Assembly (NCBI GenBank): GCA_009015555.1
Contig: GCA_009015555.1_3613.1
DNA from: a phage
Direction: 5' to 3' (one strand)
Length of the DNA: 64,000 bases
In this document: one piece after another, positions 1 through 53,824 of the stretch
How positions within the stretch are numbered: the stretch's first letter is position 1
How the letters are laid out: the number at the start of each line of letters is the position of its first letter
Program-made: the position numbers and the translations under genes
The notes under the pieces: model-generated
Told to the model about the DNA's origin: nothing
Database searches by the model: none
What the model saw: only the letters and a program-made list of their open reading frames with translations

Positions 1-196
1 GCCGGAGATCATCGACATGCTTCCCTTGGTCACTCACCTCCGTGTGGTTGAGAACCAGGGTTACCCATTCGGTTTCAACGGTGACGCACAGGCATTTGGG
101 TTCGCATCGGTTTATGACTCAGAGCGTACCGGGGCAGGTGGCATGTCCACCCTAATTTATGTATCGGACGACGAGGAAGACTGGTCGTTCACGTGA
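1..196 (+). CDS. 3' end of an upstream gene truncated by the window edge (probably structural)
   Basis: Open frame from position 2 to TGA at 194-196, then GAGGAG RBS and ATG of the fibre gene at 207. Confidence 0.35.
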   Translation, partial: PEIIDMLPLVTHLRVVENQGYPFGFNGDAQAFGFASVYDSERTGAGGMSTLIYVSDDEEDWSFT

Positions 197-206
197 GGAG
201 ATTTTC

Positions 207-1862
207 ATGGCTAAACCAAAGGACCCTATTTACGTTTGGGCTGCTGCCGACGTAAACCTTCCAGGCACGGGTCGTCCTAACAAATCAAAACCTATTGACG
301 ACTTGCTCGCCAAGGGTTACGATAAAGGACAAAAGCCAGCAGCAGAAGAGTTCAACTATATCCTGAATATGTCCTCTGCCTGGGTTAACTGGATCGTCAA
401 CGAGAAGTTTCCAGAGCTTGAGGCAGAAATCGCCCGGCTCTTGGCAGAACTTGAAAACCGCATCAACCAGCAGTTGGCTGTTATCCGTCAGGATATTGCC
501 CAACTGAAGCAAGATGTCGCAGACCTTCGTCGGTATGTCGATCAGAAGGTTCAAGAACTGAAGCAAGAAATCCAAGGCGTCCGAAACGACCTGAACAAAC
601 TGCGTCAAGACTTTGATGCTGCGATTGCTCAAGTCAACGGACGAATTGATGACCTTGAGCCACGCCTTGTTCCAATCGGTGCCGTTATCCCTTGGCCTGG
701 GGCTACAGTCCCTAACGGCTGGTTGGAGTGTAACGGCCAGGTGTTTAATACCGGGACAAACCCTAAGCTGTATGGAGTCTTGGGGCGTAACGTTGTTCCT
801 GACTACCGTGGTCTCTTCCTGCGCGGCTGGGCACACGGCTCCGGTGCTAACGATCCTGATGCTGGTCGTGCTCTCGGTTCTGTTCAGGGTGACGCCATCC
901 GTAACATCACGGGTTACTTCCCTGCGGATATCGGTCAGTCAGGCTGGATCGGTCGTTACGTTGGTGGTGTGTTCCGGGACGATGGCGCACTGACCTCTGG
1001 TGACCAAGGATCTCGTAGTGGTGAAGTACGTAAGTATAGCCTCGATGCTTCCCGCCAGGTCCCAACGGCCCCGGAAAACCGTCCGAAGAACGTCGCGGTT
1101 ATGTACATCATCAAGACTGACCAGGCACAATCCTCCGGAGGCAACTCACCAACGGCGATCGTCGTCTCTCCAGACACAATCACCAACCGTGTAGGATACA
1201 CCGTCAAAGCGACTGCGAGTGTACTCCCTGCTTCCATCGCAGGTCAATACCCTGTAACATGGTCTACTCAAAATGCTGCGGTGGCAACGGTTGATGGTTC
1301 TGGCAACATCCGCCTTGTAGGGCCGGGTGAAACCAACATCATCGCTTCCATCTCTACCGGGATGAACGTAGCGATCCGTGTGACGAGCTATTCTGTTCTG
1401 ACCAGCATCTCCATTGCTGATCCGGGCCAGATTCCGGTCACAGAATCGAAGATGCTGGTTGTTACCAAAAACCCGGGGAGCGCGAACGAACCTCTGCAAT
1501 TCCTGTCAAATAACTCCGGTGTTGCGACTGTGAACGACGCAGGTTACGTAACTGGTGTTTCCCCGGGAAGTGCCACAATCACGGTTCGTGGTACTCTTTC
1601 CGGAGTGTCATCAACTCGTTCAGTGACTATTATCCCTGAGCAAGTGGAGGAGAGCGTACAGGACAACCGTCTCGGTGCGGTAGGATCTTACATCCCACCC
1701 GGCAACGAAATCAGTTGGACTTTCCAAGCCCCTCAAGGTTGTGCTCTGACAGGTATCATCGTACAAGACGTCGGGTCCAACTCCGCCGACAACATCGGTG
1801 GTGTTTATTACAAACCGATCCAGAAGAAAGTTAACGGCGTCTGGGTCACGATCACGGGGTAA
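207..1862 (+). CDS. tail fibre protein (tail-collar domain, coiled coil, Ig-like repeats)
   Basis: GAGGAG RBS 6 nt before ATG 207. Heptad-like coiled coil (LAELENRINQQLAVIRQDIAQLKQDV), tail-collar-like signature IGAVIPWPG..VPNGWLECNGQ..YP.L...LG..VPDYRGLFLRG, then two Big_2-like Ig segments. Confidence 0.8.
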   Translation: MAKPKDPIYVWAAADVNLPGTGRPNKSKPIDDLLAKGYDKGQKPAAEEFNYILNMSSAWVNWIVNEKFPELEAEIARLLAELENRINQQLAVIRQDIAQLKQDVADLRRYVDQKVQELKQEIQGVRNDLNKLRQDFDAAIAQVNGRIDDLEPRLVPIGAVIPWPGATVPNGWLECNGQVFNTGTNPKLYGVLGRNVVPDYRGLFLRGWAHGSGANDPDAGRALGSVQGDAIRNITGYFPADIGQSGWIGRYVGGVFRDDGALTSGDQGSRSGEVRKYSLDASRQVPTAPENRPKNVAVMYIIKTDQAQSSGGNSPTAIVVSPDTITNRVGYTVKATASVLPASIAGQYPVTWSTQNAAVATVDGSGNIRLVGPGETNIIASISTGMNVAIRVTSYSVLTSISIADPGQIPVTESKMLVVTKNPGSANEPLQFLSNNSGVATVNDAGYVTGVSPGSATITVRGTLSGVSSTRSVTIIPEQVEESVQDNRLGAVGSYIPPGNEISWTFQAPQGCALTGIIVQDVGSNSADNIGGVYYKPIQKKVNGVWVTITG

Positions 1863-1867
1863 TTAAC

Positions 1868-2383
1868 ATGCGTATGAATAACTTCAAACACTACAACCCG
1901 AAGGCGAAAGCCTTCGGGGACGGTGTTCAATATTTTTCTGATGACAAGGGCCGTGATTTTTACGAGAGTCTCGGCCTGTTTACCAAGAAATATGCGGTCC
2001 TTTTCGATGAGTTCGGAATGGTCCGCTTCTTGGTCAAGTCTGTGGATATTTCTATGACTTATCCATTGGGCCTGTCTATTTCTGACCTGAACAGCATCCC
2101 AAAGGACTTCGACATCATGAAGGGGCCTTGGATGTTCGATGGGAAGAAAATTACCAAGGTGGACTTCGACTTGGCTATCGGAACTGCCAAGCGTAAGAAA
2201 GCCATCATGGGGTCTCTGTCCAGCCAGATCACACCATTGGCTGATGCAGTGGGACTGGGTGAAGCAACAGAAGAGGAGATTGAGAAATATAATGCTCTTC
2301 TGAAACTTCGTGTTAAGCTAAATCGGATCTCTGATGACACTCCCGCGAGTGAAATTGATTGGTCTGAGTTCACCGCTGCATAA
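1868..2383 (+). CDS. putative tail fibre assembly chaperone
   Basis: Starts 6 nt after the fibre stop; size and position typical of fibre chaperones; no diagnostic motif. Confidence 0.45.
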   Translation: MRMNNFKHYNPKAKAFGDGVQYFSDDKGRDFYESLGLFTKKYAVLFDEFGMVRFLVKSVDISMTYPLGLSISDLNSIPKDFDIMKGPWMFDGKKITKVDFDLAIGTAKRKKAIMGSLSSQITPLADAVGLGEATEEEIEKYNALLKLRVKLNRISDDTPASEIDWSEFTAA

Positions 2384-2424
2384 CCTTTCAGGCCGGGTAT
2401 TTGCCCGGCCCCAGGAGAACACAC

Positions 2425-2763
2425 ATGGCTCTTGATATTATGTTGATTCTGAAGTCTCTTTGGGGTTTGGTGACTTTCCTTCTGTTGGGGGTACTCAAAA
2501 TCTTTTATTCCGACTTCAAGAAAATGCAGGAGAAGCAGGACGCTCTTGAAAAAGATCTGATTCGGCTTCGTGGTGAGATGGTCAGCAAAGATAGTATTGA
2601 TGACATCCTGGATCGTAAGATCAAGCATATCACCGACACTATTGGCGACATTCGTGCCGACATCACTGACATGCGGAAAGAGGCCAAAGAAGAGACTAAC
2701 GCTCTTCAGAAGGACATCCGCTCCGTACTTAACGTCATGTTGGAGAGTCGTCGCAACAAATGA
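2425..2763 (+). CDS. membrane-anchored coiled-coil protein
   Basis: AGGAGA RBS before ATG 2425; N-terminal TM segment then charged coiled coil. Track start 2401 is TTG inside a GC hairpin. Confidence 0.5.
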   Translation: MALDIMLILKSLWGLVTFLLLGVLKIFYSDFKKMQEKQDALEKDLIRLRGEMVSKDSIDDILDRKIKHITDTIGDIRADITDMRKEAKEETNALQKDIRSVLNVMLESRRNK

Positions 2764-3218
2764 TCACGTCCATTATTTTTGGACTCTGCTTCGTCATCCT
2801 GGCAACTCGCCCGGATGCCGGGGCCAAGATTATGGCGGGGCTTGGCCTCGCCTATCTTGTTCTCGAAAACCTGATGTTTTGGTTTTTCAGCGGGGCCGAG
2901 TTCTTCGACATCACGCTGTACTTTACCACAGCTTGGGCATTGGATTCAATACTTTTATTTGCCGTGGCACTCTTTGTCCGAGGGTATCGTCAGGTCGCTG
3001 TTTTGGCGCTGGCCCTGCCTCTGATGCTGGTACAAGTATTCGCAATCCAATATCCAATCTTATTCCCCGATTGGGTTTATTCCTTCGCCGTACAGGATGC
3101 ACACAGGTATTTCATCGAGGTGTTTATCTTCGTCTATTCCTGGAAGGACAATACAGTCTCCGAGTGGCTCAGAACAGGAACCGTTCTGGCACTTGTTATT
3201 GTTGCCCATCTGGTGTGA
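2760..3218 (+). CDS. multi-pass membrane protein
   Basis: ATGA overlap with upstream stop; four or more hydrophobic segments. Confidence 0.5.
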   Translation: MITSIIFGLCFVILATRPDAGAKIMAGLGLAYLVLENLMFWFFSGAEFFDITLYFTTAWALDSILLFAVALFVRGYRQVAVLALALPLMLVQVFAIQYPILFPDWVYSFAVQDAHRYFIEVFIFVYSWKDNTVSEWLRTGTVLALVIVAHLV

Positions 3219-3241
3219 CGCATTGATAATGAAGGTGTTCT

Positions 3242-3505
3242 ATGCTAAAATTCTTCAAAGACCTCGTAACTTCCCCCATCGAACCTGACAAGGCTTCCCA
3301 CACGAAGTTCTGGTCAAACGTGGGTATGGCGGCTATGACGGCAGTTTTCCTCTGGTACGGCTTCAACAACACCCTCCCGGAGTGGTATGTTTGGGTTTAT
3401 GCACCCACAGTAGTAGCACCTCACCTTCTGAGTGACCTCATCAATCTTCGTTGGGGTATTGCCAAGAAAGAGTCGGAAGTTTCCAACAACGAAGAATCCA
3501 AATAA
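3242..3505 (+). CDS. small membrane protein (one TM)
   Basis: ORF with a central hydrophobic helix (MAAMTAVFLWYGF), same strand as the fibre genes. Confidence 0.45.
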   Translation: MLKFFKDLVTSPIEPDKASHTKFWSNVGMAAMTAVFLWYGFNNTLPEWYVWVYAPTVVAPHLLSDLINLRWGIAKKESEVSNNEESK

Positions 3506-3517
3506 GAGGAGATTCGC

Positions 3518-6500
3518 GTGTCATCCAATACTGATATCATTGCCCTGTTGAGCAGCGATGCTGACAAGGCAGTTGACCAGATCATCGAAGACTCCAAACG
3601 TCTTCACATCGTGGTCAACGGGACGGGCACCGAGCAGGCTGTTGCAGAGGATGGGAGCTTGCTCCCGTCTGTTCGCAAAGCGCTGATCGACAACCTGTAT
3701 TTCAAAACCCCACCTCTTCCCTGGAGAAACGGTGGGTCTGTCAACGAGTTCAACCAGCTTTACTCCTTCACCGACGTAAGCGGGAACACCACTTGGTGGT
3801 ATGCGCCCGGAGCTACGGTATCAAACCCGGTTGTGATGCGTGACAGCCCGATCAATGACGGCAAGTTCAAGGTTTTCTTGGACAAAACCAACATCGCCGA
3901 TATCTATGCCCCTCTGAACTCTCCGAACTTCGTCGGTAACCCCCGTGTGCCTACCCCGGCCCCTGGCGACAACAGCCAAACCGTCCCGACAACCGGGTGG
4001 GTTCAGTCAGAGATGCAGGACCTGGAAGACCAGATCATTGCCTCTATGAAGGGTGATTTCGAAAACATCACCGTCCGTAACGATGCCGTTCTCAAAGACA
4101 CGTATATCAGCGGTGAGTTCATTGTCACCAGTGATAAGTTGTCCGCTGCCAGCGCCGAAGCAACCTTCCGTCGTATTCGTGTGGTCGGCACCGCAGACAA
4201 TACTGAGATCGCTTTTGAGCAGAACACCGCACCTCCAGCGGGGGCGAGCACAAAGACTAACATCAAGCCGTACACGATGTCAACAGGCATCTTGACGATT
4301 GACCAGTTGAAAGGAAAATCTGCCCAGATTGGTGATGTTGCTGTTGCCACGGACTCCCTGAATGTCGATGGGTACATGCGTGGGGATTACCTGCATCTGG
4401 AAGGTAACAACCGAAACAGCACAACCCGCCCTCAGTTGATCGTTGATGGTATTGCAGAGATCAATACGCTGCGGGTGACTGGAACCATCGAGGGTGTAAA
4501 AGCTGATGTTGATGGCTTGGATATTCATCCTCGTAGTGTTATCATCGACGAAGGTTTGACGGTTGGCAAAGATACCTCCCTGACAGGAAAGCTGACTGTC
4601 GGCGGTACAACCAAGGTGAATAACCTGGAGGTTACTGGAACCCTGTCTGGTGTTGCTATCAGTGTTGACGGTAAAGACATCAAGCCCCGCTCTGTTAACA
4701 CCGGGAACTTGGTTGCTACTGGCAACGTGCAGATCAGTGGGACGACCACTGCAACCGGGAAGATCACAACTCAAGATCTTGAAGTGCTTGGCACACTGAC
4801 AGCTAACCTCGACCTGTCCGGGTCGGATCTGAGTGTTGATAATATCAACGTTGCAGAAACCGCGACAATAAAGGATTTGGTGGTTACCGGAAAAACAACC
4901 GGGGTCAAAGGTGACGTTGATGGAACCTTGATCAAGCCTTCTTCTGTTCAGGCAACGGGCCTTGTGTCAGCAGGTTCATTGTCTACCAATGCAAATGCCT
5001 CTATCGGGGGTAACCTGACGGTGACTGGAGAGTTCCGTCCCGCCAGCATGGAAACAGGTGCAGTTGAGGCAGATAGTCTGGTTGTTAATGGTAACATTTC
5101 CCAGACGACAGGAACAACCTCTGTAGTCAACCTGGTTGTCACAGGAACGACAACTGGCGTAACAGCCGATGTCAATGGTGACGACATTTTGCCTCGCTCC
5201 GTGACTACTACTGCGGGGGTTAAAGTCGGAACCACCCTCGACGTAACTGGAAAGACTACCCTCGGAGATGTTGATTTCACTGGGGTTGTTACCGGGCTTG
5301 AACTTGATCTTTCTCAAAAGAACGTGACAGTTAAGTCAATTGCTGCTGTAGATCCTTCTGCATTTGGGGATGTGACGACAGATAATCTGACCAACAGCGA
5401 GAAGATCATCACTCAAGACATCCAAGTTCTGGGTGATATTCTGGATGCTGCGGGGAATCCTGTCAACACCTTTGATGTTACAGGCAAAGATATTCTGCCA
5501 AACAGTGTTCAATCTGCGACGTTTATTCGCGGAAAAACTCTGGACATCAGTGACGGTTCCACCCTCCGTGGCCCTGTCGAGTTCCGTAACGGGCTGACAG
5601 TAACTCTTGGAGACATCATGTCGCCCCAAGGGAAGGCAACGTTCAACGATGTACAGGTCAATGGTGCATTGACGGACGCTAACGGCAACGTCATCGGCTC
5701 CGTTGAAAGCATCAAGGGCAAGGACATTGAACCACGCTCCGTTGTGGCTACCGTGTCTGTACAGGCCCCTCGTCTCCAATCAACTGGGGATATTTTGGGC
5801 CAGAGCGCGACAATCACCAATAACGTCTCTGCGGGGACCTTGGGTGTTTCCGGGTTGACAAACCTGGCAGAAACTCGTGTGAATGCGAAGCTAACAGGGC
5901 AATCCACAGAGTTCGAAACTCTGCTCCTGAAGCGCGTTGCTGGTCAAGATACACCTCGCTTGGTTGTGCAGGGGGATTCAGATCTCCAGGGGGACCTGAA
6001 CGTCTCGGGGACCATTACCGGGATTGTTGACCTGACGGCTCAAGATATCCGTATGAACAGCCTTGTGCTCGCCGAGGATCTTTCTGCAAGGAATATTACA
6101 GGATCAGGCACGGTTCAGGGCGCTAATGGAATTTTCGGCCAGTCTTCCCAGCCCACCACCCAGTACGGTTTGCAGTCTCTTTCCAGCGCTAAGGTAGATA
6201 AAAACCTCGATGTTGGAGGAAACTTGCGGGTAACTGGGGCCATTACCGGAAGTATGGACTTCACAGGGAAGGATATTACCCCACGGAGTGTCGCGGCGTC
6301 AGCCGGAATCGGGGCCGTGGATATCACGGCATCCGGCACGACAACGACGAAGGACCTTGTGGTCACCGGGACGACAAGTTTTGCGGGAGACAGCGTTTTC
6401 AATGCAGGCCAGGTTAAGTCCAAGTTGTTCACCGTTGACATTGGTACTGATATCACTTCAGGATCGGGGTCTTGGATTCCAGACGGGCTTCAGTCCGTTT

Positions 6501-6742
6501 ATAACGTGACGGTTACCGCCGATACCGTTATCGGTTCCATTGCTCAGTTGCCGGGCGCGGGGACTTACTTCTTCTATATCGAGCAGGATGCTGTTGGGGG
6601 CCACACTGTGACCTTTGACCCAGCTTACCTCAAGATTGGTGATGGAGAAGTGGCTACAGCGCCAAACGCAATCTCTCTGGTCCAAGTAATCTACCGTGGT
6701 AAAGGTTCAATCTTCGACTACGTGATTCTTAACCGAGGTTAA
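3518..6742 (+). CDS. large tail fibre / adhesin with tandem ~30-aa repeats (1074 aa)
   Basis: GTG start after a purine-rich RBS. About 8 copies of TGx(T/S)GVxADVDGxDIxPRSV. Followed by a terminator. Confidence 0.8.
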   Translation: MSSNTDIIALLSSDADKAVDQIIEDSKRLHIVVNGTGTEQAVAEDGSLLPSVRKALIDNLYFKTPPLPWRNGGSVNEFNQLYSFTDVSGNTTWWYAPGATVSNPVVMRDSPINDGKFKVFLDKTNIADIYAPLNSPNFVGNPRVPTPAPGDNSQTVPTTGWVQSEMQDLEDQIIASMKGDFENITVRNDAVLKDTYISGEFIVTSDKLSAASAEATFRRIRVVGTADNTEIAFEQNTAPPAGASTKTNIKPYTMSTGILTIDQLKGKSAQIGDVAVATDSLNVDGYMRGDYLHLEGNNRNSTTRPQLIVDGIAEINTLRVTGTIEGVKADVDGLDIHPRSVIIDEGLTVGKDTSLTGKLTVGGTTKVNNLEVTGTLSGVAISVDGKDIKPRSVNTGNLVATGNVQISGTTTATGKITTQDLEVLGTLTANLDLSGSDLSVDNINVAETATIKDLVVTGKTTGVKGDVDGTLIKPSSVQATGLVSAGSLSTNANASIGGNLTVTGEFRPASMETGAVEADSLVVNGNISQTTGTTSVVNLVVTGTTTGVTADVNGDDILPRSVTTTAGVKVGTTLDVTGKTTLGDVDFTGVVTGLELDLSQKNVTVKSIAAVDPSAFGDVTTDNLTNSEKIITQDIQVLGDILDAAGNPVNTFDVTGKDILPNSVQSATFIRGKTLDISDGSTLRGPVEFRNGLTVTLGDIMSPQGKATFNDVQVNGALTDANGNVIGSVESIKGKDIEPRSVVATVSVQAPRLQSTGDILGQSATITNNVSAGTLGVSGLTNLAETRVNAKLTGQSTEFETLLLKRVAGQDTPRLVVQGDSDLQGDLNVSGTITGIVDLTAQDIRMNSLVLAEDLSARNITGSGTVQGANGIFGQSSQPTTQYGLQSLSSAKVDKNLDVGGNLRVTGAITGSMDFTGKDITPRSVAASAGIGAVDITASGTTTTKDLVVTGTTSFAGDSVFNAGQVKSKLFTVDIGTDITSGSGSWIPDGLQSVYNVTVTADTVIGSIAQLPGAGTYFFYIEQDAVGGHTVTFDPAYLKIGDGEVATAPNAISLVQVIYRGKGSIFDYVILNRG
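4440..6330 (+). repeat. in-frame tandem coding repeats inside the fibre gene
   Basis: Repeated protein motif V(T/D)G(K/D)DI(x)PRSV at irregular spacing; DNA copies are diverged. Confidence 0.6.
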
Positions 6743-6745
6743 TAC

Positions 6746-6771
6746 AGCCGCCTTCGGGCGGCTTTTATTTT
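6746..6771 (+). terminator. rho-independent terminator
   Basis: AGCCGCC-TTCG-GGCGGCT hairpin followed by TTTTATTTT, directly after the fibre stop. Confidence 0.8.
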
Positions 6772-6780
6772 GGAGGTATT

Positions 6781-7977
6781 ATGTTTCCTTTTGCTATTAT
6801 TCCACCGTTTGTTCTTTCAGGCAAGGAAAAAATCAAGCAGTTTTCGGTTACGTCTTACGACAGTATGGTCCTGACTGATAAGGGGAACCTGTATGTTACA
6901 GGATTCAACCGGGTGGGTGAGCTTGGTGTTGGGGACACAACTAACCGAAATAACCAATGGGTTTTGGTAATGCAGGACGTAAACTGGATTGCAAGCAACC
7001 GTGAGAAGCTGTGGGCAATTAAGAACGACGGTTCCATTTACACCCCGGATCTTCGGTCATCCAGTACAACTGCATATACTTGGCAAATCGACACGGTAGC
7101 ACCTGGAAGTATTGGGGATTTGTCTGGGGATAATATCAAGGAGATTTACAGCGACACAGAGAGCGTATATATCCTCAAAAAGGATGGTTCACTGTGGTAT
7201 CTGGGAAATAACTCTAAAGGCCAAGCTGGAAACGGGGGAACTTCCTTAACCACACGCTTTGTGAAGGTTTCAGATGGTGTGGTATCTTGGTCATCCAGTG
7301 GACCCACTGTTGTTTTCGTGAAAACAGACGGATACTTCTGGGGCTGCGGATCAAATTCCCGAAATATCATTTCCTCTGCTGGCAGCAGTATCACAACCCC
7401 TACCCGGATGTTTAGCACCACCCACGCTGACGGAGGTGTTGTAACAGATTACACGCTGGCCTCTGACCAAGCGTTTTTGATCAGATATAGTAATGGTAAA
7501 TATCGTACCAAAGGTCTCAATATCGGACAACTTCCTTCAGGGGATGCAAGTCCATACAATACCCTTACGGACGTTCCTGACGGATACACCCCCGGTGATG
7601 GAACGGAGCCTCTGGTAAGCAAAACAGGAGGGGTGTCGGCCTCTGGAACTTGGCCTAACTATAGTGGTCTTTTCTTCTACCATACGGGAGGGAAATTCAT
7701 AGTCACTGGTCAAGCAAGCGGGAGAATTTCCGGGACCAGCCAAACCAGCGGTACACTCTCAAACTGGACCAATGTCGATGCGGCAAGTGACGAGATCCCA
7801 TCTATCAAGGGAATGACCTTCGGACTGGGTTGGGTTGCTGCCTACAACGATACGCAGATTCTGTACTGGGGGTATACGGGAAACTCCTCTGCATATCCGG
7901 TTGTGGGATACCTAATGCCCGGACCTTCAAGGCTTGAATATGTGGCACGTTTTGCAACCCCGCCGATCGAGGCATAA
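6781..7977 (+). CDS. RCC1-repeat (beta-propeller-like) protein, probably fibre-associated
   Basis: GGAGG RBS. Repeated G-x-N-x-x-G-x-L/A-G-x-G motifs (GFNRVGELGVGD, GNNSKGQAGNGG, GLNIGQLPSGD). Confidence 0.65.
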   Translation: MFPFAIIPPFVLSGKEKIKQFSVTSYDSMVLTDKGNLYVTGFNRVGELGVGDTTNRNNQWVLVMQDVNWIASNREKLWAIKNDGSIYTPDLRSSSTTAYTWQIDTVAPGSIGDLSGDNIKEIYSDTESVYILKKDGSLWYLGNNSKGQAGNGGTSLTTRFVKVSDGVVSWSSSGPTVVFVKTDGYFWGCGSNSRNIISSAGSSITTPTRMFSTTHADGGVVTDYTLASDQAFLIRYSNGKYRTKGLNIGQLPSGDASPYNTLTDVPDGYTPGDGTEPLVSKTGGVSASGTWPNYSGLFFYHTGGKFIVTGQASGRISGTSQTSGTLSNWTNVDAASDEIPSIKGMTFGLGWVAAYNDTQILYWGYTGNSSAYPVVGYLMPGPSRLEYVARFATPPIEA

Positions 7978-8010
7978 TAAAAAGGCACCCTAACGGGTGC
8001 CTTTCTTTTT
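7978..8010. terminator. bidirectional rho-independent terminator between convergent blocks
   Basis: AAAAA-GGCACCC-TAAC-GGGTGCC-TTTCTTTTT: A-tract on one side and T-tract on the other. Confidence 0.8.
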
Positions 8011-11431: not shown

Positions 11432-11844
11432 TTTGTTGCTCCCTTGCGACGTTTATCTTCATCTTCAATAGCCTCGTCTTCTGCCCGGGCCAAGATCTGA
11501 TAGATTGTCTCTGGATTGTCGAGGAACTCTGTATACTTCTTGATCCTCACTGCCAACTTGCCACGGATCTTACGCTCCTGCATCTGCTGGTTCTGCATGA
11601 AACCACGCTGGTACAGGATGAAATAGTATACCTGCTTTGCTCGATTACGATCGCAACCCAGTGCATGGGCGAAGTCATTGAAGCAGTCGCTGTCGTGTTT
11701 GACCATGAAAATGTCCCAGAACACCTCACGCGCTTTTGCAAGCTCCTCGGGAGTCACTTTTGGGAACTCCGGGTCGCCATAGCGTGGATGCTTTTTGCCA
11801 GCCCACTCGGGTTTTGCCGGATAAACTTTTCTTGTATTGCTCAT
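11425..11844 (-). CDS. hypothetical protein
   Basis: GAGGAG RBS before ATG at 11844; track start is an upstream TTG. Confidence 0.55.
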   Translation of the reverse strand: MSNTRKVYPAKPEWAGKKHPRYGDPEFPKVTPEELAKAREVFWDIFMVKHDSDCFNDFAHALGCDRNRAKQVYYFILYQRGFMQNQQMQERKIRGKLAVRIKKYTEFLDNPETIYQILARAEDEAIEDEDKRRKGATKC

Positions 11845-11910
11845 TTCATCACTCCTCAAGGTAAAACGTTATTCCACAGGATGGGGGCCGAAGCCCCCGA
11901 TATTACTTAC

Positions 11911-12603
11911 TTAATCACAGGACGAGGAACTTGAACCGCTGTCATACGAACTGGAGTCGTAAGAACTGCTGGAAGAAGAACCATAGCTCGAACTGCTGTA
12001 GCTGTCGTCAGAAGACGAGTAGCTTGAACTGTACGTTGAGGTCGCAGAGGAACTGCGGCACTCTTCCACCGGGGCAGGCTGCGCCGCCGGGGTGTCGTCA
12101 CTCAGGATCGCTCCGGCTGCATAGCCGTACATCGCCGCGTTTACGGGATCAATACCGTGAGAAACGACATGACCACCTGTGCTGTGCGGGGTATCGTCAA
12201 GACGTCGGCTTGGGGCCGGAGAACCGGACATCTTAGCCTGCTTGATGAACTGACGCTTCGCCTTCGGCGGTAGAGTCTTACCCTTCGCATACGCTGGCAG
12301 TTCCACACCTTTAAGCTGCTCGTTCAGAGGCTTTGGTGGGGTCTTTTCCACCGGGGCCTCACGAACAGTCTGGCGAGTTTCTACTGTCACCACGCGCTTG
12401 GTGTTTTCTGCTACATTTGCACTTACCAAGACTTGGTTCTTTTCCAGAGGCTCGTCCAGCGGACGGGTTTCAGCCTTGGTAAAGCGTACCTGACTTACGG
12501 TCTGGGCCTGAGATTGTTTGGCGATATACTCGTCAACCTTTGCGTCTTCGATCTTCGCCGGGGCGAACAGGGCTTTGATCCACGCCACAAATTTCTTGAT
12601 CAT
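11911..12603 (-). CDS. hypothetical protein with Ser/Tyr-rich low-complexity C-terminus
   Basis: 230-aa ORF; C-terminal SSYSSSDDSYSSSSYGSSSSSSYDSSSY. Confidence 0.5.
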   Translation of the reverse strand: MIKKFVAWIKALFAPAKIEDAKVDEYIAKQSQAQTVSQVRFTKAETRPLDEPLEKNQVLVSANVAENTKRVVTVETRQTVREAPVEKTPPKPLNEQLKGVELPAYAKGKTLPPKAKRQFIKQAKMSGSPAPSRRLDDTPHSTGGHVVSHGIDPVNAAMYGYAAGAILSDDTPAAQPAPVEECRSSSATSTYSSSYSSSDDSYSSSSYGSSSSSSYDSSSYDSGSSSSSCD

Positions 12604-16452: not shown

Positions 16453-16481
16453 CAAATAAAAAGGCCACCCGAAGGTGGCCT
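16453..16481 (-). terminator. rho-independent terminator (minus strand)
   Basis: On minus strand GGCCACC-TTCG-GGTGGCC followed by TTTTTATTT. Confidence 0.75.
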
Positions 16482-16486
16482 TAATC

Positions 16487-16917: not shown

Positions 16918-16946
16918 ATTATGGGGCCTTTCGGCCCCGCTGTCAA
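16918..16946 (-). promoter_or_regulatory. sigma70-type promoter with GC hairpin in spacer (minus strand)
   Basis: Minus strand TTGACA-gcGGGGCCgaaaGGCCC-CATAAT. Confidence 0.7.
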
Positions 16947-20159: not shown

Positions 20160-20187
20160 AATAAAAAACCGCCCCGAAGGGCGGTTA
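20160..20187 (-). terminator. rho-independent terminator (minus strand)
   Basis: Minus strand AACCGCCC-TTCG-GGGCGGTT followed by TTTTTATT. Confidence 0.75.
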
Positions 20188-20811
20188 TCTTTTCTTGGTT
20201 TCAATCTTGATTGAGCGCATCAAGCACCGGGAATGATACAGAGCTTGGTCTTGAGAACCGCCGATCATGAGATTAAAACTTGTCCCGTCTGCAAGATCTG
20301 GGATGGCTTTGTTGTTTATCGTTGGCGATCCATCAACAGTTACAGTGAGGCTCTTGTTAATAGACTCGAAGATTATCTCGTGATAAACACCTTTTGTCAC
20401 GGCGGGGCCTGCATTGACCCTGCTGGAATTATACCACCAGTCAAGGTATCCGTTACTCAGCATGTTGGCGATCCAAGTGCCAGACCCGTTTCCTTGAATA
20501 GATCTCCCCACAAATATCATTGGGTTTGTTGCCGCTGCCTTAACCTTCAGATTCATGGTGATCTTCCAGTCATTGTTTAGCAGCTTGTCTGGGGTGGTCC
20601 CTCCGCTCAATGCCCCATCTCCAACAAAATCCATCGCTGGCAGGCCCTCGTCGAGAACCGTCGCGGATGTTCCGGCGGTCCTGTTGAACGTTATCCCGCG
20701 ATCAGTGAATCCTGAGAATGTGCCCAAGGGATACTTGGTGAAGTCCAACTCGAACCAAGTGCTGTACTTTTTCGGATCTCCGCCCCCCGGCAGTACCAAC
20801 ATCTCTTGCAT
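20185..20811 (-). CDS. MQEML-family paralog 1; concanavalin-A/LamG-like lectin fold suspected
   Basis: N-terminus MQEMLVLPGGGD shared with three other genes; beta-rich with a LamG-like segment (LTVTVDGSPTINN). Confidence 0.6.
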   Translation of the reverse strand: MQEMLVLPGGGDPKKYSTWFELDFTKYPLGTFSGFTDRGITFNRTAGTSATVLDEGLPAMDFVGDGALSGGTTPDKLLNNDWKITMNLKVKAAATNPMIFVGRSIQGNGSGTWIANMLSNGYLDWWYNSSRVNAGPAVTKGVYHEIIFESINKSLTVTVDGSPTINNKAIPDLADGTSFNLMIGGSQDQALYHSRCLMRSIKIETKKR

Positions 20812-20825
20812 ATTGCCCCCTAAAA

Positions 20826-20851
20826 GAAAAGGGGCCGAAGCCCCCGGAATA
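20826..20851 (-). terminator. rho-independent terminator after the DNA polymerase gene (minus strand)
   Basis: Minus strand GGGGGCTTCGGCCCC followed by TTTTCTTTT. Confidence 0.7.
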
Positions 20852-20885
20852 CAAGCATTTTACCACAAATGTGTAAAAATAGCCA

Positions 20886-23522
20886 TTAGTGACAATCTCC
20901 CCAGCTTGTGCCCGTCAGGTATTCACCTGTGATGTGGACTGGAGATTTCATCATCTTAGCCGCCTGCTCCACGCACTTAACGACCATCTGCCCGACCGGG
21001 CAATGAATAATCGTGTACACGCCGTTCTCGTCCGGATCACACTTGAACTTACCTTCTTTCACACAGTGACCATCCAGAACCAGACCTTTCGCCAGGCACT
21101 GCTCAACAAAGGCTTTTGCGGTTGCCTCGTCGTTGAACTTCCATTCTTTCTTGAACTTGTGCGGCACTTCAAGCTGGTATTCATCGTGGTAGTAGATGAT
21201 ACGGCGGACGCCTTCATCATACCAGCCACGCTTAACCAACTGCCAGTGCAGCAGGATACCGACCAGATCGAACAGTGCAGCACCGCCGTTCTGCTGGTAT
21301 GCGTTCAGCAAGGAGTGTTTGGAGCGGGTGTAGATCTTACGACCATCGAGGCCGTAGATAAAGCGTTTCCCGGTCAACTCCCAGAACTTCTCAAGTGCTT
21401 CTTTACGACCTTTCAGACCGATGTTGCTATCCCAGAATGCGTCGATTACCGCCTGAGCCTTGTCGAGGGAAATACCCAACATGGAGGCGATCTTCGCGGC
21501 CTGGGCACCGTACATGATGCCGTATGTCACACCCTTACCTTCACCACGGGAAACCTTCTTACCCGCCGCTTTGGTATACGCTTCAGCGTTTCGGCTGTGG
21601 GCGTCACCTGATTCCATGATCCGGAGATATGCCCCGCCGTCGAACTCGTAGGCACCCCATGCTGCGATCATACCTTCGAGGTTTGAGCCGTCGATACCAA
21701 CCTGATATTTCCCTTCAGATGCCCGGAATAAGCCACGCATCTCTTTACCCAGTAAAACCTTCTCGTCTGGTTTAGGGACGTTAGCCACGATTGTGTGCTT
21801 ACGTCGCCCGGTGTTGGTGATCCCAGAATAACGCGCCGGGAGTTTACCGTCAATACGCAGTCGTGGGTGGTTCAGCCATCCTGTGTCAACCTTGTCTTCC
21901 TTGAGCGGGTCAAGTACAGAACGACGGTTACGCAGAGACAGCCACTTCACGATCTGCTTTGCCATATGACCGTCAACCTTCTCCAAGTTCGGACACAGGC
22001 CGCTCATATCTTTCAACTGCGGAGACGTAGGCAGGCCACGGGCCTTACGTCGCAACAGCTTGTACATCTTCTCTTTGTCCTGCCACGCCTTCGGGGTGAT
22101 GCCGAGGTATTCCAGAATAAGATCCCGGTATTCAACTTGGTCCAACTGCTCAATGTACTCACGGACAAGCCCATCGACCTCGTTATCGGGGCGTTGTTTC
22201 TTAAACTGGTCCTTCGTCACATCCTTACTGCGCCACAGGGTTGGCTTCCAGCCTGCATCACGGATAAGGAACTTCTTCACGTCATCTTGGTTACCGATAC
22301 GCATCGGAATCATAATGTCCGGCATGGTTTGGTTCTTCAGATCCAACATTGCCCGTGCCATGTCCTCTGGTGAGAGAGGGATCAGGGTCGTTTGCTTGTT
22401 GTTCTGGTCCCGGATAAACTGCGGCATCGCTGCCTCATCCTCGACACCATGCTCATTGCAATACTTGATTGCTGCCGCCGTCAGGCTACCATCGGCCTTG
22501 AAAGACTTCGCCGGGGGACCCTTAAAGTCGAGTGCCTCCCAGTTGACATTATACCCCAACTTCTCCAGCCACTTCCACCCAGTCCCGGACAAAGATCCAT
22601 CGCCCTTGAACGGCTTAGAAGGGAAGGTCGGTTGTGCTGACTTCGCCATCTCTTTCTTCGGGAGATGGGGTTCAACATCTCCCTCGATCTCTCGCATCAT
22701 TTGATCGATACGGTCACGAAGTTTAAGTGCCGCCTCTTCGTCGAAAGATACGCCCTGAATCTCCTGCTCAATCATCAGGTAGTCTGTCAGCATACCACGA
22801 CGCATGGCATTCTTCCAGTTGATCAGCTTGTACTTCTTGGCGTCCTTATCCTTATCTTCATCCTTGTACATGAAGCGTTTGTCATCTACCAGCTTGCCGT
22901 CGCAGGCGATCTCCTCCATGAGGGCCGTCCACACCATTTCGTTGATGATAACGTCTTCGATGATACGATCACAATACTTCCACAGCGGCAGGCCACGCCA
23001 GTCTTCGATTGCCACTTTCTGGTTGGCAACACGCATACCCCACGCCTCTAAGCCGTGAGGGCCGACAGGTTTCATCTTCCCGGTGACCGGGTTCTTTACC
23101 ATCTCCGGACACCCACGAGGAAGCGGTCGGTCTGGATAAAGAGTTCGAGACATTGACAGAGTGTCGAACAGGTTAACCTGCTTGCCGTTCAGGGTGCCCA
23201 TGCACTTAGGGTCGCCGAACATATCATACTGTGTTCCCAACATCTTTTTAAACAGACGAAGGTCGTAGCCGAACAGGTTGTGGATCGCGATGGATTTAGG
23301 CTCCGTCTTGAACCAATCGTTCAACTCCTCAAAGGTACGAATTTTGAAATTCTTGCCCTTCGATTGGATAAATTTCAACGCCTGATCGTACCCTTCCCGG
23401 TTGGGGTCGAGGAAGATATTCCAGTTATCGACCTTATACTCCTTGAACAGGATCACGTGAAGCTGGTCTACTTCTTCGAGCAGACCATTGGCTTCAGCAT
23501 CCCCTACAAACAACCCTTTCAT
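20886..23522 (-). CDS. family-A DNA polymerase with 3'-5' exonuclease domain
   Basis: Exo motif FVGDAEANG; motif A IDGSNLEGM; motif B R...KGVTYGIMYGA; motif C YYHDEYQLE. AGGAGA RBS before ATG at 23522. Confidence 0.9.
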   Translation of the reverse strand: MKGLFVGDAEANGLLEEVDQLHVILFKEYKVDNWNIFLDPNREGYDQALKFIQSKGKNFKIRTFEELNDWFKTEPKSIAIHNLFGYDLRLFKKMLGTQYDMFGDPKCMGTLNGKQVNLFDTLSMSRTLYPDRPLPRGCPEMVKNPVTGKMKPVGPHGLEAWGMRVANQKVAIEDWRGLPLWKYCDRIIEDVIINEMVWTALMEEIACDGKLVDDKRFMYKDEDKDKDAKKYKLINWKNAMRRGMLTDYLMIEQEIQGVSFDEEAALKLRDRIDQMMREIEGDVEPHLPKKEMAKSAQPTFPSKPFKGDGSLSGTGWKWLEKLGYNVNWEALDFKGPPAKSFKADGSLTAAAIKYCNEHGVEDEAAMPQFIRDQNNKQTTLIPLSPEDMARAMLDLKNQTMPDIMIPMRIGNQDDVKKFLIRDAGWKPTLWRSKDVTKDQFKKQRPDNEVDGLVREYIEQLDQVEYRDLILEYLGITPKAWQDKEKMYKLLRRKARGLPTSPQLKDMSGLCPNLEKVDGHMAKQIVKWLSLRNRRSVLDPLKEDKVDTGWLNHPRLRIDGKLPARYSGITNTGRRKHTIVANVPKPDEKVLLGKEMRGLFRASEGKYQVGIDGSNLEGMIAAWGAYEFDGGAYLRIMESGDAHSRNAEAYTKAAGKKVSRGEGKGVTYGIMYGAQAAKIASMLGISLDKAQAVIDAFWDSNIGLKGRKEALEKFWELTGKRFIYGLDGRKIYTRSKHSLLNAYQQNGGAALFDLVGILLHWQLVKRGWYDEGVRRIIYYHDEYQLEVPHKFKKEWKFNDEATAKAFVEQCLAKGLVLDGHCVKEGKFKCDPDENGVYTIIHCPVGQMVVKCVEQAAKMMKSPVHITGEYLTGTSWGDCH

Positions 23523-23611
23523 ACTCTCTCCTTTTTGGCATACCTCCACTCAGGATAGCCCAATGCCTCGTAAAGATCAACCTATCAATACCCGTCCTTG
23601 GGTGAATAATC

Positions 23612-29971: not shown

Positions 29972-30057
29972 ATAACCTCCTACTGGTTGATAAGGGGAGT
30001 TTACAGGGGTTTTATCGGGGAGTCAAACGAAAAAAGGCCCCCGAAGGGACCTTTTTA

Positions 30058-30576: not shown

Positions 30577-30613
30577 AATCACCTCGAAGTAAATGGGGCC
30601 GAAGCCCCGTTAA

Positions 30614-42731: not shown

Positions 42732-42763
42732 CGGTGTTTCCTCATTTGTGTTGGTATGGGGCC

Positions 42764-42792
42764 ATAATACAGGCCCCATTTATTACTGTCAA
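42764..42792 (-). promoter_or_regulatory. sigma70-type promoter with -10 inside a hairpin loop (minus strand)
   Basis: Minus strand TTGACA-17-TATTAT; -10 flanked by GGGGCC / GGCCCC inverted repeat. Confidence 0.65.
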
Positions 42793-44687: not shown

Positions 44688-44750
44688 CCCTTGCATCGTG
44701 TTTTTGTTCATGGTACTTTATTGTTCACTCAACATGAACAGGAGATTACT

Positions 44751-45314
44751 ATGAACAAAGTATTATCCCCGGCAGAGCAGCTTGCCATGATGATTAAGTT
44801 GGCTGCAACACACCACATGCAACAGTTTGATAAGGGCGGGCGTCCTTATGTTCTGCACGTCCTGAAGGTAATGCACTACCTTAAGGTAAAGGATGACGAC
44901 GAACTGAACTGTATTGCCGTGGGCCACGACATCGTTGAAGATACCCCGGTACAACCCTGCGATTTGGAACGGCTGGGTATGTCCAACAGGGTTATCTCTG
45001 GGATCGCTCGGCTGACCAAGGTAGAAGGTCAGACCCACGGCGAATACCTCAAAGGTGTCCTGGAGAGTTATGATGCCTGCCGTGTTAAGCTGGCAGACCT
45101 GCGTCACAACACCGATATCCGCCGTCTGAAAGGACTGCGTAAAAAGGACTTGCAGCGAATCCAGAAATATCATAAAATGCACATGCAGATTAAAGACATG
45201 ATCGCATGGTACGAAAACAACCATTTGAGCATGTTCTCTTTCCCGGGCGATTATTTTTCTGCCCGTGATGAGCAGGTGAAATCAATCATGGAGAAAGAAT
45301 ACGATGCGGATTAA
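44751..45314 (+). CDS. HD-domain phosphohydrolase, (p)ppGpp-hydrolase (SpoT/RelA HD)-like
   Basis: AGGAG RBS. H..H ... GHDIVEDT, resembling the HD motif of alarmone hydrolases. Confidence 0.65.
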   Translation: MNKVLSPAEQLAMMIKLAATHHMQQFDKGGRPYVLHVLKVMHYLKVKDDDELNCIAVGHDIVEDTPVQPCDLERLGMSNRVISGIARLTKVEGQTHGEYLKGVLESYDACRVKLADLRHNTDIRRLKGLRKKDLQRIQKYHKMHMQIKDMIAWYENNHLSMFSFPGDYFSARDEQVKSIMEKEYDAD

Positions 45315-45465
45315 GGTTTTAGATGCCCCTCTGGGGCATAAATTCGACCCGGACAAGCACTATCTGGTTTACGGGACACACGGCTATGCCTTCGTTTTTG
45401 ATGACGACTGTGAATCTTGCTTTTTGAGCGATATGGAATGGGAGGAAGTGACAAGTGAAAGTTGA
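45304..45465 (+). CDS. small hypothetical protein (53 aa)
   Basis: Hand-translated MRIKVLDAPLGHKFDPDKHY..; overlaps both neighbours. Confidence 0.3.
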   Translation: MRIKVLDAPLGHKFDPDKHYLVYGTHGYAFVFDDDCESCFLSDMEWEEVTSES

Positions 45466-45661
45466 AATCATTGAGCGCGGTACTGAGGTGATCTTGGTAA
45501 GCCGAGATACTGCGGTCAACCCGGGGTTTATCGTCCCCCGCAAAAACGAGCGAATCTGCGCCCACGGAGATAACTATTTTGTCCGTGAGGTTAACCATTA
45601 CTACTACCGTGCCATCCCTGGTGAAGATGATTTCATTGAGATTTTGGTGGAGGCAGAATGA
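45455..45661 (+). CDS. hypothetical protein
   Basis: GTG start 7 nt after GGAGGAAG. Confidence 0.45.
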   Translation: MKVEIIERGTEVILVSRDTAVNPGFIVPRKNERICAHGDNYFVREVNHYYYRAIPGEDDFIEILVEAE

Positions 45662-46188
45662 AAAAGACACTAAGCATTAAACCTGTTATCTCCACATACC
45701 TCGGTTGTCCTGACCGATACGGGAGTGCCGAGGTTATGGACGATGGTGATTGGTTGGACCTCGAAGAGGACAAGCAATACCCTATCACTCGTTTGGGTTG
45801 CCTGATCAACGGCAAAGAGCCGGAGGAGACGTACTGCATGTACTACTTCCTCCAAGCAATGAAGCCCGGCTATAAGGGCGATTATCAGGACGGTTGGACG
45901 TGGAACACGTTCTTTACCTGTTCCTGCGGTCACGGCGGTTGCGCCGGGTATCACGAGAACGTCCGTATCCACCGTAAAAAGGCTACCGTCCGGGTCATGG
46001 GTAAGGTATCCGACGGTTATAAAAACGGCGTGGTGGGCACTGGGGAGGCCGTGGTGTACTTCGATAAGAAGGAGTGGGATGCGGTCCGTGATTACTACAT
46101 GGACCTGTTCCGCAAGAACCCGGATGGCATCTTCCAGGATAACGAAATCTTCTTTACCGGGCGTTACGGCCTGAAAGCATGGGGTTGA
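45658..46188 (+). CDS. hypothetical Cys/His-rich protein
   Basis: 176 aa; CSCGHGGCAGYH. Confidence 0.55.
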   Translation: MKKTLSIKPVISTYLGCPDRYGSAEVMDDGDWLDLEEDKQYPITRLGCLINGKEPEETYCMYYFLQAMKPGYKGDYQDGWTWNTFFTCSCGHGGCAGYHENVRIHRKKATVRVMGKVSDGYKNGVVGTGEAVVYFDKKEWDAVRDYYMDLFRKNPDGIFQDNEIFFTGRYGLKAWG

Positions 46189-46190
46189 GA

Positions 46191-46805
46191 ATGAAGCGTA
46201 CCAAAGTAATCAACAAGGCGCGATTCCGTAAATCCTTTCTGGGGTTTGCTGTCGCGGCTGTTGTAACCTTCACCCTGTCCGGCTGTGAGCAAGCTGACGA
46301 AACGGTGAAACTGTACATGAACTCTGAGCAGTGTGCCAAAGAAAGCGGAAATACGCTCGAACAGTGCCAAACTGCGGAGAAAGAGGCCCAGAAGGTTGCC
46401 GCAGAAACGGCACCGAAATTTGGGACGTATGCCGAGTGTTACGAAGAGTTTGGCAGTATGTGCCAACATAACTCGGCGGCTGCTGCCAGTACGGGCGGGG
46501 AATCCCCGTGGATGCCTCTGATGATGGGTTACATGCTGGGCAATATGATGGGGTCAAGTAACTCCTATCACGCAGCACCGATGTACCAGAGCCGTTCTGG
46601 TCAGTGGGTTGACAACAAGGCCCGGTCTTACGACGTGAAGCCGGGGAAATCGTTCAAAGTAACGAAGTCTGCCATTAAGCCAAAGGTTGAGGCACCGCGA
46701 TCCACTTGGTCCGGTTCCAAATCCGGCTTCTCCTCGTCAAAGACAACCACCCGTGGCGGGTTCGGTTCCTCTGTGGGGCGTAGTAGCAGTTCTTTTGGTG
46801 GATAA
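46191..46805 (+). CDS. lipoprotein
   Basis: MKRTKVINKARFRKSFLGFAVAAVVTFTLSGC signal plus lipobox; Gly/Ser-rich C-terminus. Confidence 0.55.
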   Translation: MKRTKVINKARFRKSFLGFAVAAVVTFTLSGCEQADETVKLYMNSEQCAKESGNTLEQCQTAEKEAQKVAAETAPKFGTYAECYEEFGSMCQHNSAAAASTGGESPWMPLMMGYMLGNMMGSSNSYHAAPMYQSRSGQWVDNKARSYDVKPGKSFKVTKSAIKPKVEAPRSTWSGSKSGFSSSKTTTRGGFGSSVGRSSSSFGG

Positions 46806-46810
46806 AAGTA

Positions 46811-46838
46811 TTGACTTATCAGATGGCCCATATATAAT
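46811..46838 (+). promoter_or_regulatory. sigma70-type promoter with -10 inside a palindrome
   Basis: TTGACT-16-TATAAT; the -10 sits in the loop of GGCCCAT...ATGGGCC. Confidence 0.65.
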
Positions 46839-46870
46839 GGGCCTCATTGACAACAAAGAGGAGAAATTCA

Positions 46871-48109: not shown

Positions 48110-48133
48110 CATCACAATATAAGCTGATAGAAT
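48106..48133 (+). promoter_or_regulatory. candidate promoter ahead of the VWA gene
   Basis: TTGACA-16-TAGAAT overlapping the MoxR stop codon. Confidence 0.4.
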
Positions 48134-48167
48134 GGGGTCATCTTTCGAGATGGCCCCTTTTTCTTTT
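48134..48167 (+). terminator. terminator-like hairpin / leader stem-loop
   Basis: GGGGTCATC-TTTCGA-GATGGCCCC followed by TTTTTCTTTT, between the MoxR stop and the VWA RBS. Confidence 0.6.
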
Positions 48168-48176
48168 GGAGGAAAT

Positions 48177-49733: not shown

Positions 49734-49741
49734 GGAGAATT

Positions 49742-51634: not shown

Positions 51635-51665
51635 CAGCACAATCCTATTGATAAAGGAAGAAATA

Positions 51666-52594: not shown

Positions 52595-52597
52595 TTA

Positions 52598-53823: not shown

Positions 53824-53824
53824 C

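Follow-up and report, generated by a model that had tools for sequence, protein, structure and literature searches.

We show that the 64,000-nt stretch of phage DNA analysed here (GenBank assembly GCA_009015555.1, contig GCA_009015555.1_3613.1; hereafter the window) carries, between its genes, short G+C-rich hairpins that are enriched over chance, specific to the transcribed strand, placed close behind stop codons and constrained in their stems even where the sequence of those stems has turned over. We propose that five of these hairpins, which have neither a T-tract nor a promoter, probably act in the RNA at the 3' end of cistrons, as exonuclease barriers or weak attenuators. The feature is real, non-random and functional-looking, and it comprises known kinds of element (T4-type tetraloop hairpins, cassettes like the promoter-early stem-loops, PeSLs, of T4-like phages, and terminator-like stabilisers) in a subfamily in which it had no prior description; no new kind of mechanism is revealed.

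The window belongs to the genome of a Cronobacter-type phage of the genus Certrevirus (Vequintavirinae, rV5-like myoviruses). It is about 96% identical to the Cronobacter phages CR3, CR8 and PBES02 (94–100%, depending on the stretch) and 77–90% identical to KaOmega, F1M1E, CR9 and phiTE. According to the annotation of PBES02 and CR3, late tail-fibre genes occupy the plus strand at bases 1–8000, replication genes and many small genes the minus strand at 8000–44700, and small genes of unknown function the plus strand at 44700–64000. Since the minus-strand block contains the sites at 11.9, 16.9 and 30.6 kb, the RNA at these sites is the reverse complement of the letters from which an earlier, sequence-only reading had been made, and the loops GAAG and TTTC that it described are in functional terms UUCG, GAAA and UUCG.

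Intergenic hairpins were collected by an energy-based scan of both strands, together with promoter and terminator scans, and those on the sense strand were divided into class T (followed by a T-run), class P (inside a sigma70-like promoter) and class N (neither of these, and standing in a short spacer with a stop codon on one side and the next Shine–Dalgarno sequence on the other). U-runs were graded with a d'Aubenton-Carafa-type tail score, for which the background is 2.07 ± 0.58 and the 95th percentile 3.26. The stem-loops cited in the sequence-only reading are present at positions at most one base from those it gave; on the strand as printed they read GGCCGGG/TATTTG/CCCGGCC (2391–2410), GGGGGC/CGAA/GCCCCC (11883–11898), GGGGCC/TTTC/GGCCCC (16923–16938), GGGGC/CGAA/GCCCC (30595–30608) and AGGCCCCC/GCC/GGGGGCCT (57411–57429). 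The hairpin at 57411 departs from the form ascribed to it, with its C-run first and a three-base loop. Two copies were missing from the earlier list, a terminator at 20831–20844 and a 10-bp stem without T-tract at 54377–54400.

Counted against dinucleotide-preserving shuffles, GGGGC-N4–8-GCCCC is found 10 times in the window where 0.43 ± 0.64 are expected, and GCCGGG-N4–6-CCCGGC five times where 0.02 are expected. For perfect G+C-rich stems of 6 bp or more the count is 29 where 8.7 ± 3.1 are expected, and 20 of the 29 are intergenic, with intergenic DNA making up 13.7% of the window (binomial P = 1.5e-11). The excess of the motif over a shuffled control, a comparison that the sequence-only reading had proposed, is therefore far above chance and finds no explanation in base composition. 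Rfam covariance models, run over the whole window on both strands at the gathering score, gave no matches.

The five class N hairpins are:
2391–2410, plus strand: GGCCGGG-UAUUUG-CCCGGCC, tail score 1.50
11883–11898, minus strand: GGGGGC-UUCG-GCCCCC, tail score 2.18, no T-tract, no promoter
30595–30608, minus strand: GGGGC-UUCG-GCCCC followed by AUUUACUU, tail score 2.94, borderline, scored as a terminator under the lenient rule
54377–54400, plus strand: CGGGAGAGGC-UUGC-GCCUCUCCUG, tail score 2.11, no T-tract
57411–57429, plus strand: AGGCCCCC-GCC-GGGGGCCU with the weak tail UUCGUGUG, tail score 3.27

Their stems are of 5–10 bp, with folding energies of –8.7 to –18.3 kcal/mol, and their placement is tight. 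They begin 5–12 nt past a stop codon, the range at the window's 12 terminator sites (13 strand-specific entries) being –2 to 46 nt, and end 2–24 nt ahead of the next Shine–Dalgarno sequence. In particular, 2391 lies 7 nt past the stop of a tail-fibre-assembly gene and 2 nt ahead of the Shine–Dalgarno sequence AGGAGA, 11883 lies 12 nt past the stop of a 230-aa gene and about 36 nt ahead of the start of a 140-aa gene, and 30595 lies 5 nt past the primase/helicase stop and 18 nt ahead of the next start; the corresponding distances are 10 and 24 nt at 54377 and 8 and 19 nt at 57411. The tail scores of all five fall below the 3.5–5.5 of class T (13 strand-specific scores at 12 sites), and the U-run that defines an intrinsic terminator is absent or weak throughout the class, 30595 alone counting as a terminator when the rule is relaxed. 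The earlier statement that several of the hairpins lack a U-run thus holds for 2391, 11883 and the promoter hairpin 16923 (tails 1.5–2.2) and only in part for 30595 (2.94) and 57411 (3.27). No promoter-like site was found by the scan at any of the five positions, and we discarded the notion that 11883, 30595, 54377 and 57411 are degenerate promoters, for which neither the scan nor inspection by eye gave a promoter-like site. Also discarded was a terminator at 11882–11899 on the plus strand: this antisense strand scores under the lenient rule, but no genes are transcribed that way there and the loop would be CGAA. In the phiTE record terminators are annotated at the orthologs of class T sites and none at class N sites.

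That the hairpins act as RNA is indicated by their orientation. Perfect hairpins with a UUCG loop number nine in the window against 2.2 ± 1.4 expected (eight of them intergenic), and all nine, in plus- and minus-strand gene blocks alike, carry UUCG and not CGAA on the transcribed strand; a tenth, at 30034, contains a G-U pair. The exact C(UUCG)G is present on the sense strand at 11883 and 30595, as well as at 20831, 6746, 16461, 20167, 30034 and 52597, and is absent from 2391, 54377 and 57411, which have other loops. Among orthologs of the promoter hairpin 16923 the loop stays GNRA (GAAA, GAGA, GGAA), and G-U pairs, which on the other strand are C-A mismatches, occur on the sense strand at 30034, at 48134 and, in KaOmega, at 52597. 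The hairpin at 46822, also within a promoter, has undergone a compensatory double change in CR9 (GGGCCA...UGGCCC). The strandedness of UUCG, the GNRA loop, the sense-strand G-U pairs, the compensatory change and the self-complementarity that orthologous promoter spacers keep despite entirely different sequences make sense only for RNA. A function of the DNA itself, whereby the palindromes would bind a dimeric phage or host protein, or would be recombination hot-spots that shuffle cassettes as has been proposed for PeSLs, is in our judgement highly unlikely. Such a function would suit stems that are perfect inverted repeats and invariant in the genus, orthologous promoters with different hairpin types (as if exchanged between copies) and the synteny breaks that adjoin some hairpins, e.g. 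at 20818–20885; however, the uniform sense orientation of UUCG (9/9) and the sense-only G-U pairs are meaningless for duplex DNA, the spacing of the half-sites ranges from 3 to 8 bp, and, as far as match ends can indicate, break points lie no nearer to hairpins than do random intergenic positions. The match ends came from BLAST of the window against seven relatives and were set against 36 hairpin elements; 11 of 107 clusters lay within 40 nt of a hairpin, where 4.9 are expected for random and 25 for random intergenic positions, these ends mostly reflecting divergence rather than true indels.

Comparison with relatives indicates that the stems are under constraint. Within the genus, 4 of 72 stem columns in the class N junctions vary, against 46 of 175 other spacer columns (Fisher P = 1e-4), among which the ribosome-binding sites are included; the loops vary at 2391 and 57411. 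The 11883 hairpin is unchanged in seven Certrevirus genomes, the orthologs of 2391 keep an invariant stem around a changing loop, and the ortholog of 57411 has the loop GGC in KaOmega and reads AGGCCCC-AGGU-GGGGCCU in SSBI34. Tails are graded between orthologs: for 30595 the window has AUUUACUU and CR9 has AUUUUCUU, and for 57411 the tail reads UUCGUGUG (window), UUUGUGUG (F1M1E) or AUUGCCUG (phiTE). Septuagintavirus is a sister genus (about 50–70% protein identity) with a G+C content of 41% (PMC11370258). Its junction orthologous to 11883 has GAGGGGCC-GAAA-GGCUCCUC, and that orthologous to 2391 (in A7_1) has GUCGGGC-UUCG-GCCCGAC, both without a T-tract and both at the same distance from the stop codon as their counterparts in the window. 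At these two junctions a hairpin persists across genera, still without a U-run, while the sequence has been replaced.

Two of these junctions show further peculiarities. The 36-nt leader that runs from the 11883 hairpin to the next start (window 11848–11882, minus strand) is near-invariant in Certrevirus, and in Septuagintavirus it keeps an invariant GUUUUA and the ribosome-binding site, with flanking proteins that are only about 50% identical. RNase E prefers U-rich single strands, and the motif hints at a cleavage site beside a protective hairpin; as a general mechanism an RNase E-type motif was rejected, no comparable motif being found past the other class N sites. Past the ortholog of 57411, the Salmonella phage SSBI34 (L024, 290–370) has an extra segment of about 120 nt with the tRNA-like T-arm sequence GGTTCGATCCCCGCC, which the window does not have.

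We suggest that the hairpins of the window, which are small (5–10 G-C-rich pairs) and mostly capped by UUCG or GNRA loops, would fold co-transcriptionally and, lying a few nt past stop codons, would mark the 3' end of a cistron. Combined with a U-run such a hairpin would be an intrinsic terminator, and inside a sigma70-type early promoter it would close the upstream unit while the promoter opens the next, as in the PeSL design. Class N may belong to the same continuum, at the end where the U-tract is lacking: RNA polymerase would mostly read through, the downstream gene being co-transcribed, and the hairpin would block 3'-to-5' exonucleases once the transcript had been cut or had ended further downstream, possibly adding low-level pausing or termination. 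The mRNA of the upstream cistron would then outlast or outnumber that of the downstream cistron, and expression would be tuned within the operon. Among the three functions offered in the sequence-only reading, that of RNA stability elements fits best, given the extra-stable loops on the transcribed strand only, the placement at stop codons and the conservation of the stems; it is the activity itself that we infer.

Several observations weigh against this account. The searchable literature holds no transcriptome for Certrevirus or Vequintavirinae and no transcript ends for any Certrevirus, so that activity has to be deduced; a 5-bp stem (–8.7 kcal/mol) is a weak barrier; and a hairpin 5–12 nt from a stop codon would be melted by each terminating ribosome. 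By analogy, the RB49 reporter assay suggests that such stem-loops might terminate strongly without a canonical U-run, which leaves the predominance of read-through unproven. A reading at the DNA level is possible in so far as the palindromes are perfect, and, as the stems are invariant within Certrevirus and show no covariation there, a constraint on DNA sequence is formally conceivable. Across genera, covariation at the 11883 junction comes to one compensatory pair among three distinct sequences, which is not significant, so that our argument rests on positional retention with sequence turnover and not on covariation statistics. Finally, in the more distant Mydovirus KB57 and BIS47, Seunavirus SSE121 and the rV5-like FV3 the corresponding junctions (including, in KB57, that of 30595) measure 0–47 nt and have no G+C-rich hairpin; the element is therefore dispensable, one that tunes expression and is not essential.

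Considering the alternatives, we find it unlikely, though deserving of real weight, that class N consists of efficient terminators that are independent of a U-tract, with the A/U after the stem sufficing and the downstream genes relying on rare read-through or on unrecognised promoters. The stem-loop of PeSL211/210 cut lacZ as much as did rrnB T1 (PMC2839356), the placement of class N behind stop codons is like that of true terminators, 30595 satisfies the lenient rule and the tail of 57411 stands at the 95th percentile of the background. On the other hand, 2391, 11883 and 54377 have tails that score like the background (1.5–2.2), no sigma70-like promoter lies between the hairpins and the next start 19–40 nt away, and the T-tract is missing across genera at two junctions; since the phage puts U-runs at 12 other terminator sites, such a conserved absence would be unexpected if strong termination were selected. 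Control of the translation of the downstream gene, with the hairpin as the operator of an RNA-binding repressor (as for T4 gp43 or RegA) or as an insulator of the Shine–Dalgarno sequence, seems to us decidedly improbable. The hairpins do stand 2–24 nt upstream of a Shine–Dalgarno sequence, the leader past 11883 with its GUUUUA is conserved in two genera, and in T4 the gp43 operator, likewise a hairpin, precedes its start codon by about 40 nt (PMC3014915). Nevertheless, it is the distance to the upstream stop that is tight and that to the Shine–Dalgarno sequence that is variable, loops and stems differ by site and by ortholog and so offer no common recognition sequence for a protein, and UUCG loops are not known to bind proteins (PMC4371310). 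Nor do the flanking proteins give a clue to a partner, all of them belonging to PHROG families of unknown function and having no RNA-binding domain; their one match in Pfam was sub-threshold, SPOR on a protein of 73 aa (19.9 bits, the cut-off being 21).

For sites of a phage protein, another of the functions proposed from the sequence, we found nothing in favour, and the variation of loop length and sequence between copies and orthologs argues against a fixed site. We likewise give little credence to the idea that class N and the promoter hairpins together form a punctuation system read by a phage-encoded factor, be it a hairpin-dependent termination or antitermination protein or an endoribonuclease. 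Were this so, transcript ends would switch between early and late infection instead of being fixed by folding alone, and the pattern of hairpin without U-run in two genera would be the footprint of that factor. Processing sites of the RNase III type, also offered in the sequence-only reading, or of another double-strand-specific enzyme, as in the T7 early region, would suit the intercistronic positions within long polycistronic blocks. RNase III needs about two helical turns, or a duplex of some 20 bp. The class N stems are isolated helices of 5–10 bp without extension, in contexts of 100 nt the gain in folding over shuffles is small or nil (z = –0.3 to –2.3) and no extended duplex forms, and Rfam contributes no match; with stems far too short, we regard this proposal as scarcely tenable. 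It is also very improbable that the hairpins no longer have a function and are what remains, in decay, of former terminators or promoter cassettes. They share identical cores with functional-looking terminators and promoters, and they are absent at the same junctions in three other genera, as relics might be; against this, the stems are more constrained than neighbouring spacer bases, the Shine–Dalgarno sequence included, and at two junctions a hairpin of different sequence has been retained in the sister genus despite its 41% G+C.

Several known systems can be set beside these hairpins, the closest being the CUUCGG hairpins of T4 mRNA, the PeSL cassettes and the intercistronic stabilisers of bacterial operons. 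The most stable RNA tetraloop known, UUCG closed by C-G, was first described from T4 mRNA (Tuerk et al., 1988, recounted in PMC4371310). The T4 C(UUCG)G hairpins and those described here have in common short G-C stems, a UUCG cap, a position on the sense strand between genes and an autonomous, fast-folding nature without bound protein; 11883 and 30595 show the exact CUUCGG, a likeness extending to seven terminators of the window. The phage subfamily is unrelated, however (Vequintavirinae as against Tevenvirinae), three of the five class N loops are different (UAUUUG, GCC, UUGC), and the function of the T4 hairpins is itself a proposal (folding nucleation, stability) and not fully defined. With intrinsic terminators all five class N hairpins share a G+C-rich stem with a short loop just past a stop codon, and their cores recur in the terminators at 20831 and 60155; they differ in the U-run, which is absent or weak (1.5–3.3 against 3.5–5.5). 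Intercistronic stabilisers, such as the repetitive extragenic palindromes (REPs) of malEFG, are U-run-less hairpins between co-transcribed genes that block 3' exonucleases and raise expression of the upstream cistron. REPs form a family of imperfect palindromes of about 35 nt with a consensus and host proteins of their own, whereas the phage hairpins are of 14–24 nt and have no sequence in common with them. The early RNase III sites of T7 are irregular hairpins of about 50–60 nt with a duplex of some 20 bp; they too are intercistronic in a polycistronic phage transcript, but the stems here are of 5–10 bp.

PeSLs are cassettes of the T4-like phages RB49 and phi1 (PMC2839356, PMC4122927), of which five subclasses are distinguished by the position of the polyG/polyC stem-loop relative to the –35 and –10 elements. 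In them an early promoter of sigma70-like type, preceded by an A/T-rich region, is combined with a polyG/polyC stem-loop that has no classical U-run and is thought to terminate or attenuate upstream transcription. In the window such a promoter accompanies 16923, which fits exactly, and about 18 further hairpins at 42.7–63.6 kb; all the stem-loop positions (between –35 and –10, overlapping either, or upstream) occur, the hairpins lying in the spacer, over the –10 or over the –35, and as in the T4-like phages the cassettes cluster where the genes are small and their function is unknown. The other four hairpins of the sequence-only reading differ in having no promoter, as do all five of class N. 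PeSLs have been described only for T4-like phages, and for the window the recombination and mini-circles associated with them would be putative; the papers on PeSLs that our search returned concern T4-like phages and a cyanophage, and none of them Vequintavirinae. The promoter/stem-loop cassette design of T4-like phages is thus also found in the unrelated rV5-like subfamily, which points to convergent use or to a general rule for large lytic phages that use host RNA polymerase.

The class P hairpins, at about 19 sites of the form TTGAC-N16–18-(C/T)ATAAT, are 16923 (minus), 42756 (minus), 46822 (plus) and an array at 56.5–63.6 kb:
16918–16946, minus strand: promoter TTGACA-17-CATAAT (11/12) whose spacer is the hairpin GGGGCC-GAAA-GGCCCC (16923–16938)
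42756–42779, minus strand: promoter-like TTGACA-17-TATTAT with the –10 in the loop of AUGGGGCC...GGCCCCAU, read from the sequence outside the coverage of the scan
46811–46845, plus strand: promoter TTGACT-16-TATAAT with the –10 in the loop of GGCCCA...UGGGCC, from the hairpin and promoter scans
56564–63563, plus strand: array of early sigma70-like promoters, each with a G+C-rich hairpin, from the hairpin and promoter scans

In the array the hairpin occupies a spacer position at 56569, 57110, 58151, 58914, 60972, 61527, 61980, 62489, 62726, 63000 and 63539, overlaps the –10 at 58453, 59196 and 61186, and overlaps the –35 at 57807 and 60442. Between 44 and 64 kb the window has 47 promoter-like sites, against 20.8 ± 4.5 expected. 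The hairpin at 16923 had been taken for a copy outside promoters, but in fact it lies in a 17-bp promoter spacer, that of the promoter-like site with the highest score in 1–20 kb, the stop codon of the upstream 669-aa gene abutting the –35. Orthologous promoters (sites 60972 and 62489) have different yet always self-complementary spacers: GGGGCC..GGCCCC, GCCGGG..CCCGGC and CGGCCC-GAAA-GGGCCG. A Certrevirus promoter consensus, AAAA-N3–4-TGTTGAC-N17-TATAAT, has been published for phage CB7 with 21 sites in each of CR3 and CR8, and without mention of the embedded hairpin (PMC7344957); for rV5, 33 promoters and 20 terminators have been predicted (PMC3606486). Publications had so far offered no more than a promoter consensus and terminator predictions for Certrevirus and its relatives, and the present census provides a coherent transcription map for the group. 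The five hairpins without a U-run are clean natural test cases for how much termination, pausing or mRNA protection a bare hairpin of the CUUCGG type brings about in vivo, and they are of use in the annotation of phage genomes (terminator predictors skip such hairpins) and in operon design in synthetic biology. Additionally, a 25-nt leader, CACATAGCGACGCACACCGCGCCGC, occurs three times on the plus strand just past early promoters of the array (56597–56621, 60482–60506 and 63568–63592) with 0–1 mismatch, 0 being expected by chance; the hairpin that it may form is more stable on the antisense strand.

Class T, made up of canonical terminators, comprises 12 sites (6746, 7981, 16461, 20167, 20831, 24547, 30034, 36923, 39158, 48134, 52597 and 60155), including:
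6746–6763, plus strand: UUCG-loop terminator past a tail fibre gene, tail score 4.66
7981–8004, both strands: bidirectional terminator where the plus- and minus-strand gene blocks converge, from the hairpin and tail scans
16461–16482, minus strand: UUCG-loop terminator followed by a promoter-like TTGACT, tail score 4.41
20167–20186, minus strand: UUCG-loop terminator, tail score 4.68
20831–20844, minus strand: terminator in which the shared core GGGGC-UUCG-GCCCC precedes UUUUCUUUU, tail score 5.08
30034–30053, minus strand: UUCG-loop terminator with a G-U pair on the sense strand, tail score 4.57
48134–48157, plus strand: UUCG-loop terminator directly past the –10 of the promoter-like site 48106–48133, tail score 5.46
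52597–52624, plus strand: UUCG-loop terminator with a 12-bp stem, from the hairpin and tail scans
60155–60171, plus strand: terminator in which the shared core GGGGCC-GCUUA-GGCCCC precedes UUAUUUUUU, tail score 4.78, its ortholog annotated as a terminator in phiTE

The sequence-only reading was right that promoters, terminators and spacers draw on one core, which in 20831 and 60155 is followed by a T-run; on the strand as printed, 20831 shares the core plus TTTTCTTTT. The gene past the 20831 terminator (20185–20811) is present in CR3 and replaced in PBES02 and CR9, with the break beside the hairpin (20818–20885), and the neighbouring DNA polymerase gene (20886–23549, minus strand) is uninterrupted in the window and in CR3 and split by HNH endonuclease genes in PBES02, CR9 and phiTE. 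At 48106–48157 (plus strand) a TTGACA-16-TAGAAT site (11/12, with TG) is followed without a gap by a UUCG terminator hairpin and T-run. Judging by its position about 7 nt past the –10, the start site would fall inside the 5' arm of the hairpin, so that upstream transcripts would terminate and those started locally would have no hairpin, a compact overlap of terminator and promoter.

Two further observations concern the window at large. Its identity to PBES02 is mosaic, at 100% around 2.4 and 6.8 kb (2100–7000) and about 94% around 11.9 kb (11600–12200), where CR3 is closer than PBES02, and this pattern suggests recent recombination among Cronobacter certreviruses. At 49772–49789 (plus strand) a strong hairpin, GGUCGCC-GGGG-GGCGACC (–20.2 kcal/mol in its extended form), stands inside a coding sequence about 30 nt past the start, and is kept in all the relatives examined.

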